The position numbers and the translations under genes are program-made. The notes beneath the pieces were generated by a model. It saw only the letters and a list, made by a program, of their open reading frames with translations, was not told where the DNA came from and searched no databases. Positions 3,261 through 3,295 of a stretch of DNA of 4,217 nt are shown in pieces (the first letter of the stretch is position 1; each line of letters opens with the position of its first letter). This DNA comes from Escherichia coli (GTDB lineage: Bacteria; Pseudomonadota; Gammaproteobacteria; Enterobacterales; Enterobacteriaceae), in NCBI RefSeq assembly GCF_003334255.1, contig NZ_QOWU01000109.1, one strand, 5' to 3'.

Positions 3261-3295
3261 GTAACAAGCCGGTGCTTTACCCACCGGCTTGTTAC
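3261..3295 (+). terminator. Long perfect stem-loop downstream of digH (terminator-like, poor U-tract)
   Basis: Perfect 14-bp stem GTAACAAGCCGGTG (3261-3274) / CACCGGCTTGTTAC (3282-3295) with 7-nt loop CTTTACC, beginning 18 nt after the digH stop. The downstream sequence CCTCTTAAAC is only weakly U-rich, so termination efficiency is uncertain. Confidence 0.55.

Follow-up and report, generated by a model that had tools for sequence, protein, structure and literature searches.

A perfect 14-bp stem-loop downstream of digH in Escherichia coli as a candidate 3' end of a Rho-terminated mRNA

Downstream of digH in Escherichia coli we examined a perfect 14-bp stem-loop at positions 3261-3295 of the stretch of DNA analysed here (4,217 nt, in the following called the window). 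On balance we slightly favour the reading that this hairpin forms the 3' terminus of a monocistronic digH mRNA, with transcription terminated by Rho further downstream and the transcript trimmed back by exonucleases. It most likely represents an unremarkable type of bacterial gene end that has been described before. An earlier note on this DNA had offered three options, namely a leaky terminator, a stabiliser of the mRNA 3' end and a protein-binding palindrome; the pairing and the wobble pairs described below favour the first two, which concern the RNA, and disfavour the third. The features referred to are, in window coordinates:

Upstream of gadC, plus strand: the end of gadB
258-1793, plus strand: gadC
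1924-3243, plus strand: coding sequence of digH (yddW), from the list of open reading frames and the RefSeq annotation of the identical K-12 sequence; in K-12 the gene is b1491 (RefSeq, NC_000913.3 1567504-1568823, minus strand)
3244-3260, plus strand: conserved 17-nt spacer between stop codon and hairpin (ACTCCCATTCTTACTTT), with 11 of 17 columns invariant in seven Escherichia lineages
3261-3274, plus strand: 5' arm of the stem (GTAACAAGCCGGTG), from inverted-repeat search and RNA fold; its core GCCGGTG is invariant in all 10 aligned Escherichia sequences
3275-3281, plus strand: loop of 7 nt, CTTTACC, from the same search and fold; its sequence varies between lineages
3282-3295, plus strand: 3' arm of the stem (CACCGGCTTGTTAC), from the same search and fold
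3296-3373, plus strand: C-rich, G-poor, unstructured and fast-evolving spacer, a putative Rho loading (rut-like) region, from composition, fold and alignment
3374-3527, plus strand: conserved block outside the hairpin element (74-84% invariant columns), presumed promoter and 5' UTR of dosC
From 3607, plus strand: dosC, from the annotation in matching RefSeq records

Every gene neighbouring the hairpin lies on the same strand as digH, and the spacer between digH and dosC measures 363 bp. The hairpin region has the same sequence in E. coli K-12 MG1655, whose copies of these genes lie on the minus strand; a window position x converts to NC_000913.3 position 1567504-(x-3243), which places the hairpin at NC_000913.3 1567452-1567486, minus strand. 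The hairpin starts 18 nt from the digH stop codon and lies within the digH 3' UTR. Past the gadC terminator and ahead of the digH start codon we noted a sigma-70-like promoter match (1863-1890; TTGACT, 16-nt spacer, GAGAAT), which fits digH being a transcription unit of its own.

The two arms are 100% complementary and enclose a 7-nt loop, just as the earlier note had described, and its statement that no perfect inverted repeat in the window is longer also held: the runners-up comprise 12 bp (122-149) and 11 bp (1817-1843), and the one longer inverted repeat is merely 83% complementary. In 300 first-order Markov simulations of the window, evaluated for stems with a loop of 3-10 nt, the longest perfect stem arising by chance did not exceed 11 bp, with a mode of 7 bp. 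The RNA fold of the hairpin has a predicted energy of -23.9 kcal/mol (z -8.7), and none of 200 shuffled sequences was as stable. The stem consists of a GC-rich core of 7 bp, GCCGGUG/CACCGGC, in which six of the seven pairs are G-C and which alone folds with -12.6 kcal/mol (z -4.3), and of a lower half GUAACAA/UUGUUAC with a U-rich 3' side.

Canonical intrinsic terminators carry a U-tract of about 7-8 nt directly after a GC-rich hairpin. Like them, the digH hairpin is GC-rich, lies past the stop codon and has A-rich 5' and U-rich 3' flanks that lengthen the stem; unlike them, it shows no run of U, with only three U among the 8 nt of the tail behind the full 14-bp stem (CCUCUUAA) or an interrupted UUGUUACC behind the core. 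The absence of a U-tract claimed in the earlier note therefore stands for the full stem, which is followed by CCTCTTAAAC with 3 T in 8, but not in the same way for the GC core, where UUGUUACC provides 4 U in 8. Since the lower stem is rich in U on its 3' side, the verdict depends on where the stem is assumed to end, and TTGTTAC, the distal half of the 3' arm, might serve as a weak U-rich tract should the GC core fold alone. A terminator scan of the window, with a threshold of at least 5 T in the 8 nt after the stem, called the hairpin neither as full 14-bp stem nor as GC core.

This ambiguity leads to the best surviving alternative, which we consider possible but rather doubtful: a weak, non-canonical intrinsic terminator composed of a core hairpin of 7-8 bp and the interrupted U-tract UUGUUAC(C). 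The complementarity of GUAACAA would then be incidental, as in A-tract/U-tract terminators, and termination would be partial, perhaps aided by NusA/NusG, with some read-through toward dosC. Of the first 5 nt behind the core, four are U, and its d'Aubenton-Carafa-type score of -16.6 is comparable to the -21.0 of the gadB hairpin, which does have a Term-seq 3' end 4 nt past its stem; mixed or transitional terminators are known to exist (Dar & Sorek 2018, PMC6061677). On the same formula, depending on the stem considered, the digH hairpin scores from -16.6 to -40.7, versus +19 for the canonical gadC terminator, which differs from the digH hairpin in its mapped 3' end and in the run of five U (UUUUUCGU) that follows its GC core. 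Against weak intrinsic termination we further hold that the scan made no call for either form of the stem, and that other Escherichia lineages have C or G in place of U in what would be the U-tract (GUGUCAUC, UUGUCACC), where rC:dG and rG:dC hybrid pairs should disfavour release. Changes on the 5' side restore the pairing at these positions, which is predicted by selection for the stem and not for U-richness; likewise, a compensatory T to C change on the 3' side lowers the U content and keeps the pair, again pointing to selection on the stem. Weak intrinsic termination is nevertheless plausible alongside termination by Rho, as the two are compatible and not exclusive of each other.

Turning to the sequence behind the stem, the 78 nt at 3296-3373 contain 22 C and 4 G. 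Counted from the last base of the stem, the 78 nt at 3295-3372 hold 23 C and 4 G, which is the highest C/G ratio in the window and also the highest in 8 kb of K-12 on both strands, where just 0.19% of all 78-nt segments reach a ratio of at least 4. The downstream RNA appears unstructured, with a fold of 3296-3400 of -4.6 kcal/mol (z -0.19). Among seven Escherichia lineages only 12% of the columns in 3296-3373 are invariant and indels are numerous, and despite this drift the segment is G-poor in all lineages aligned. Owing to the extreme excess of C over G, the lack of structure and the retained G-poor composition, 3296-3373 resembles a Rho loading site. A C-rich, G-poor composition predicts such sites only loosely, which counts against our main reading. 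Within this C-rich stretch, at about position 3337, about 12-13 nt are duplicated in tandem in most other aligned E. coli strains (AATTAACCACGC AATTAACCACAC; L002 3236-3262, L003 1736-1762), a duplication that K-12 and the window do not have.

Rho-dependent transcripts of E. coli have been reported to show precise steady-state 3' ends just past stable stem-loops without U-rich tails, a C-over-G enrichment downstream, and trimming to the stem by PNPase and RNase II (Dar & Sorek 2018, PMC6061677). The digH hairpin shares with this class a stable stem-loop soon after the stop codon, the missing U-rich tail, the C-over-G enrichment directly downstream, and an energy and size similar to those of intrinsic-terminator hairpins, and it is no REP element. 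The class is further defined by the steady-state 3' end, bicyclomycin-sensitive read-through and trimming, and digH is a candidate member on its sequence features. From this match we infer the following course of events. RNA polymerase would read through the hairpin with little or no intrinsic release, since an adequate U-tract is missing, and the untranslated, C-rich, G-poor and unstructured RNA from about 3296-3373 would load Rho. Termination by Rho would be diffuse, within the roughly 100-150 nt that precede the dosC promoter. The 3'-to-5' exonucleases PNPase and RNase II would then trim the tail to the base of the 14-bp stem, which would block them, so that the mature 3' end would come to lie near 3295-3300 and the digH message would be stabilised. 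A minor share of intrinsic termination at UUGUU may add to this.

Term-seq 3' ends have been mapped at the gadC terminator (1568900) and at the gadB hairpin (1570594) of K-12 (Adams et al. 2021, PMC7815308). In the window, the canonical gadC terminator at 1817-1843 has its mapped end at about 1847, and the gadB hairpin at 122-149, with a 12-bp stem and a weak U-tract in its tail AATTTCC, at about 153. For the digH-dosC spacer neither a Term-seq 3' end nor a Rho-termination region is listed in the full tables that accompany this study, and their Rho table has no region at 1567xxx, which counts against our main reading; we think that the digH 3' end is missing there on account of low digH expression. 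The TERMITe and SMRT-Cappable-seq data have no relevant entry for the hairpin site, nor has TRS among the matches listed, and the literature on yddW, digH, yddV and dosC is silent on a digH terminator.

The hairpin locus was found in 5,413 of 5,426 complete E. coli genomes. Conservation at orthologous loci, a point raised in the earlier note, is borne out by a structure that is kept in about 5,400 of these 5,426 genomes and in other Escherichia, with changes that preserve the pairs. In an alignment of 10 Escherichia sequences 94% of the stem cells are paired, compared to 33-52% if the partners are slid by 1-3 columns. Pair 20-51 changes in compensatory fashion from A-U to G-C in three sequences, pair 25-47 is changed on both sides once, and in 11 further stem cells one side is changed with a G·U pair kept. 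The covariation is modest and counts against our main reading, as only two pairs vary on both sides and 52 of 500 shuffles reach the score; we ascribe this unimpressive control to the close relationship of the aligned sequences.

Alignment of the whole digH-dosC interval from seven Escherichia lineages revealed three zones, with 54-65% invariant columns from the stop codon to the hairpin, 12% in 3296-3373 and 74-84% in 3374-3527. The last 100 nt of digH have 74% invariant columns, similar to the 11 of 17 in the spacer preceding the hairpin. These zones bear on the possibility that the hairpin is a functionless, decaying remnant, e.g. of a former terminator, conserved only through the close kinship of Escherichia genomes. 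The weak covariation statistics would suit such a remnant, as would the degraded stem of some lineages (the fold of MOD1-EC7003 reaches only -12.8 kcal/mol, WP5-S18 and EC17GD31 have a mismatch near the loop) and the lack of a mapped transcript end at the hairpin in the tables of Adams et al. 2021 (PMC7815308). The adjacent 78 nt, however, have diverged nearly completely over an equal evolutionary distance, whereas the block from stop codon to hairpin has kept its invariant columns and its pairing, and because of this contrast between the hairpin and the adjoining fast-evolving sequence we regard a mere remnant as improbable.

The variants found in E. coli differ in their effect on the two strands. 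C3285T, which converts a G-C pair into G·U on the plus strand, is present in all five strains sampled outside the K-12-identical group (N17, M7638, MS20673, 1604D011 and O157:H7); C3270T (U·G) and A3263G (G·U) likewise yield a wobble pair on the plus strand only, and further E. coli variants were one A·C mismatch and one transversion next to the loop. The plus-strand RNA hairpin is more stable than that of the minus strand by 2-7 kcal/mol in six of the 10 aligned sequences and is also the more stable one in three of four further E. coli alleles. The K-12-type perfect palindrome folds equally well on both strands, which counts against our main reading. The bias in stability toward the sense strand is as predicted by selection on the digH sense transcript, and with most substitutions giving G·U on this strand only, an RNA structure is indicated rather than a site in DNA or for a protein. 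A function on the minus strand was considered and judged unlikely, with no convergent gene and no T-run there and with the wobbles favouring the plus strand.

The same variants weigh against a palindrome acting at the DNA level, be it a binding site for a dimeric regulator (e.g. of dosC), a cruciform or a recombination site. Two perfectly matching 14-bp arms around a 7-bp spacer, located intergenically and upstream of dosC, have the form expected of such a site, and co-evolving half-sites could also give paired changes in the arms; most natural variants, however, are asymmetric and break the DNA symmetry, with G·U pairing of the sense RNA kept. The palindrome is single-copy, and some 145 bp separate the end of its stem from the putative dosC -10 element downstream, with a fast-evolving, indel-rich stretch in between. 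A weakened but recognisable homologue of the stem (-12.8 kcal/mol) moreover occurs in a lineage without dosC downstream (L008), which argues that the hairpin goes with digH. An insertion of IS1 inside the 3' arm of one strain, MS20673, could hint at a site of this kind, but concerns one of 5,426 genomes, and overall we hold a DNA-level role to be highly improbable. In MS20673 (L001 3183-3260) IS1 lies at window position about 3288, between …CCCACTGGC and GGTAATGGTGCC…; beyond IS1 the sequence resumes at sra, the interval from the 3' arm behind digH to sra apparently being lost, so that this strain lacks dosC and dosP. The allele of P276M, a shorter hairpin followed by ATTTTTA, was considered as an ancestral form with U-tract and rejected: it was found in one of 5,426 genomes, and as the dosC annotation of this assembly shows a frameshift and an internal stop, it is likely a sequencing artefact or a private mutation.

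Although digH is present in many Enterobacterales, a scan of one genome per species identified a homologous hairpin in Escherichia alone, and the sequence downstream of digH orthologues in other Enterobacterales is unrelated to the E. coli hairpin. In a rough survey of the window and 80 loci, 58 carried a hairpin of -10 kcal/mol or below within 110 nt, and in 15 of these 58, among them Enterobacter and Lelliottia, the 8 nt behind the hairpin contain at least 5 T. Since this survey was crude, with fixed window lengths and any orientation of the downstream gene, we treat it as background only.

REP/BIME elements resemble the digH hairpin in being intergenic palindromes with the potential to stop exonucleases at the 3' end of an mRNA, but differ in having many dispersed copies per genome that share the REP consensus. 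The hairpin occupies one locus per genome (median 1 place) and does not match the REP consensus, in agreement with the earlier note, and with a single locus per genome a repeat family or REP was ruled out. A search with the palindrome itself gave two places per genome in complete E. coli genomes, and we read the second place as the palindrome matching itself on the reverse strand. Three listed genomes with a degraded palindrome and intact downstream flank (H53-H55) gave one place; a further one with a degraded palindrome (H56) gave two, contrary to this reading. An Rfam 15 scan of 3100-3700 with E up to 10 returned sub-threshold matches only; the best, rli61, reached 24.2 bits (E 0.048), the gathering score of this family being 50, and is taken as chance.

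If Rho termination followed by trimming is correct, digH is a self-contained transcription unit with a message stabilised by its 3' stem-loop, and it is Rho, not an intrinsic terminator, that shields the sigma-S-type dosC promoter from digH transcription. This would help in the annotation of the K-12 locus (NC_000913.3 1567452-1567486, minus strand) and in the engineering of digH and dosCP; otherwise it contributes one more comparative case to what is already known as a rule, namely that mRNAs terminated by Rho end at hairpins without U, and raises no new question. We give hardly any credence to the more far-reaching proposals that the hairpin is a regulated gate, in which a protein binding RNA 3' ends, such as ProQ, or growth-dependent Rho activity sets how much digH transcription reads into the yddY-dosC-dosP operon and a septal cell-wall hydrolase would be coupled to oxygen-sensing c-di-GMP signalling, or that the long perfect stem by itself terminates E. 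coli RNA polymerase without a U-tract.

On the dosC side, the block at 3374-3527 is more conserved than the flanking coding sequence. It contains a sigma-S-like CTATACT at 3440-3446, within GGGCTATACT (3437-3446), which is the putative -10 element of the dosC promoter. Further downstream, at 3528-3569, lies yddY, an ORF of 13 codons with a strong AGGAG ribosome-binding site, which is annotated in K-12 and whose protein product has been detected (PMC6001520). Across Escherichia the start of yddY and the region upstream of it are invariant, but the peptide varies in sequence and length, a pattern that suggests a leader ORF for dosC in which translation matters rather than the product.

We also observed several disrupted alleles of dosC. 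The end of the window itself (4141-4217) is the terminal inverted repeat of IS1 (GGTAATGACTCCAACTTATTGATAG...), inserted inside dosC, so that the source strain has an interrupted dosC; in most genomes the match to dosC stops at about 4141, and a single match across the dosC and IS1 parts of the query was obtained in seven of 5,426 complete E. coli genomes. In M7638 (L003 2005-2030; window 3598-3625) a deletion of 13 nt removes the annotated dosC start codon (ATGGAGATG…), and dosC of this strain starts in RefSeq at the next in-frame ATG (MKDEW…), which calls into question which dosC start K-12 really uses. In N17 (L002 3475-3690) the match ends at about window position 3561 and a dosC remnant of 165 nt directly precedes dosP, indicating that most of dosC has been deleted; five similar hits (H25-H29) break at the same query position.
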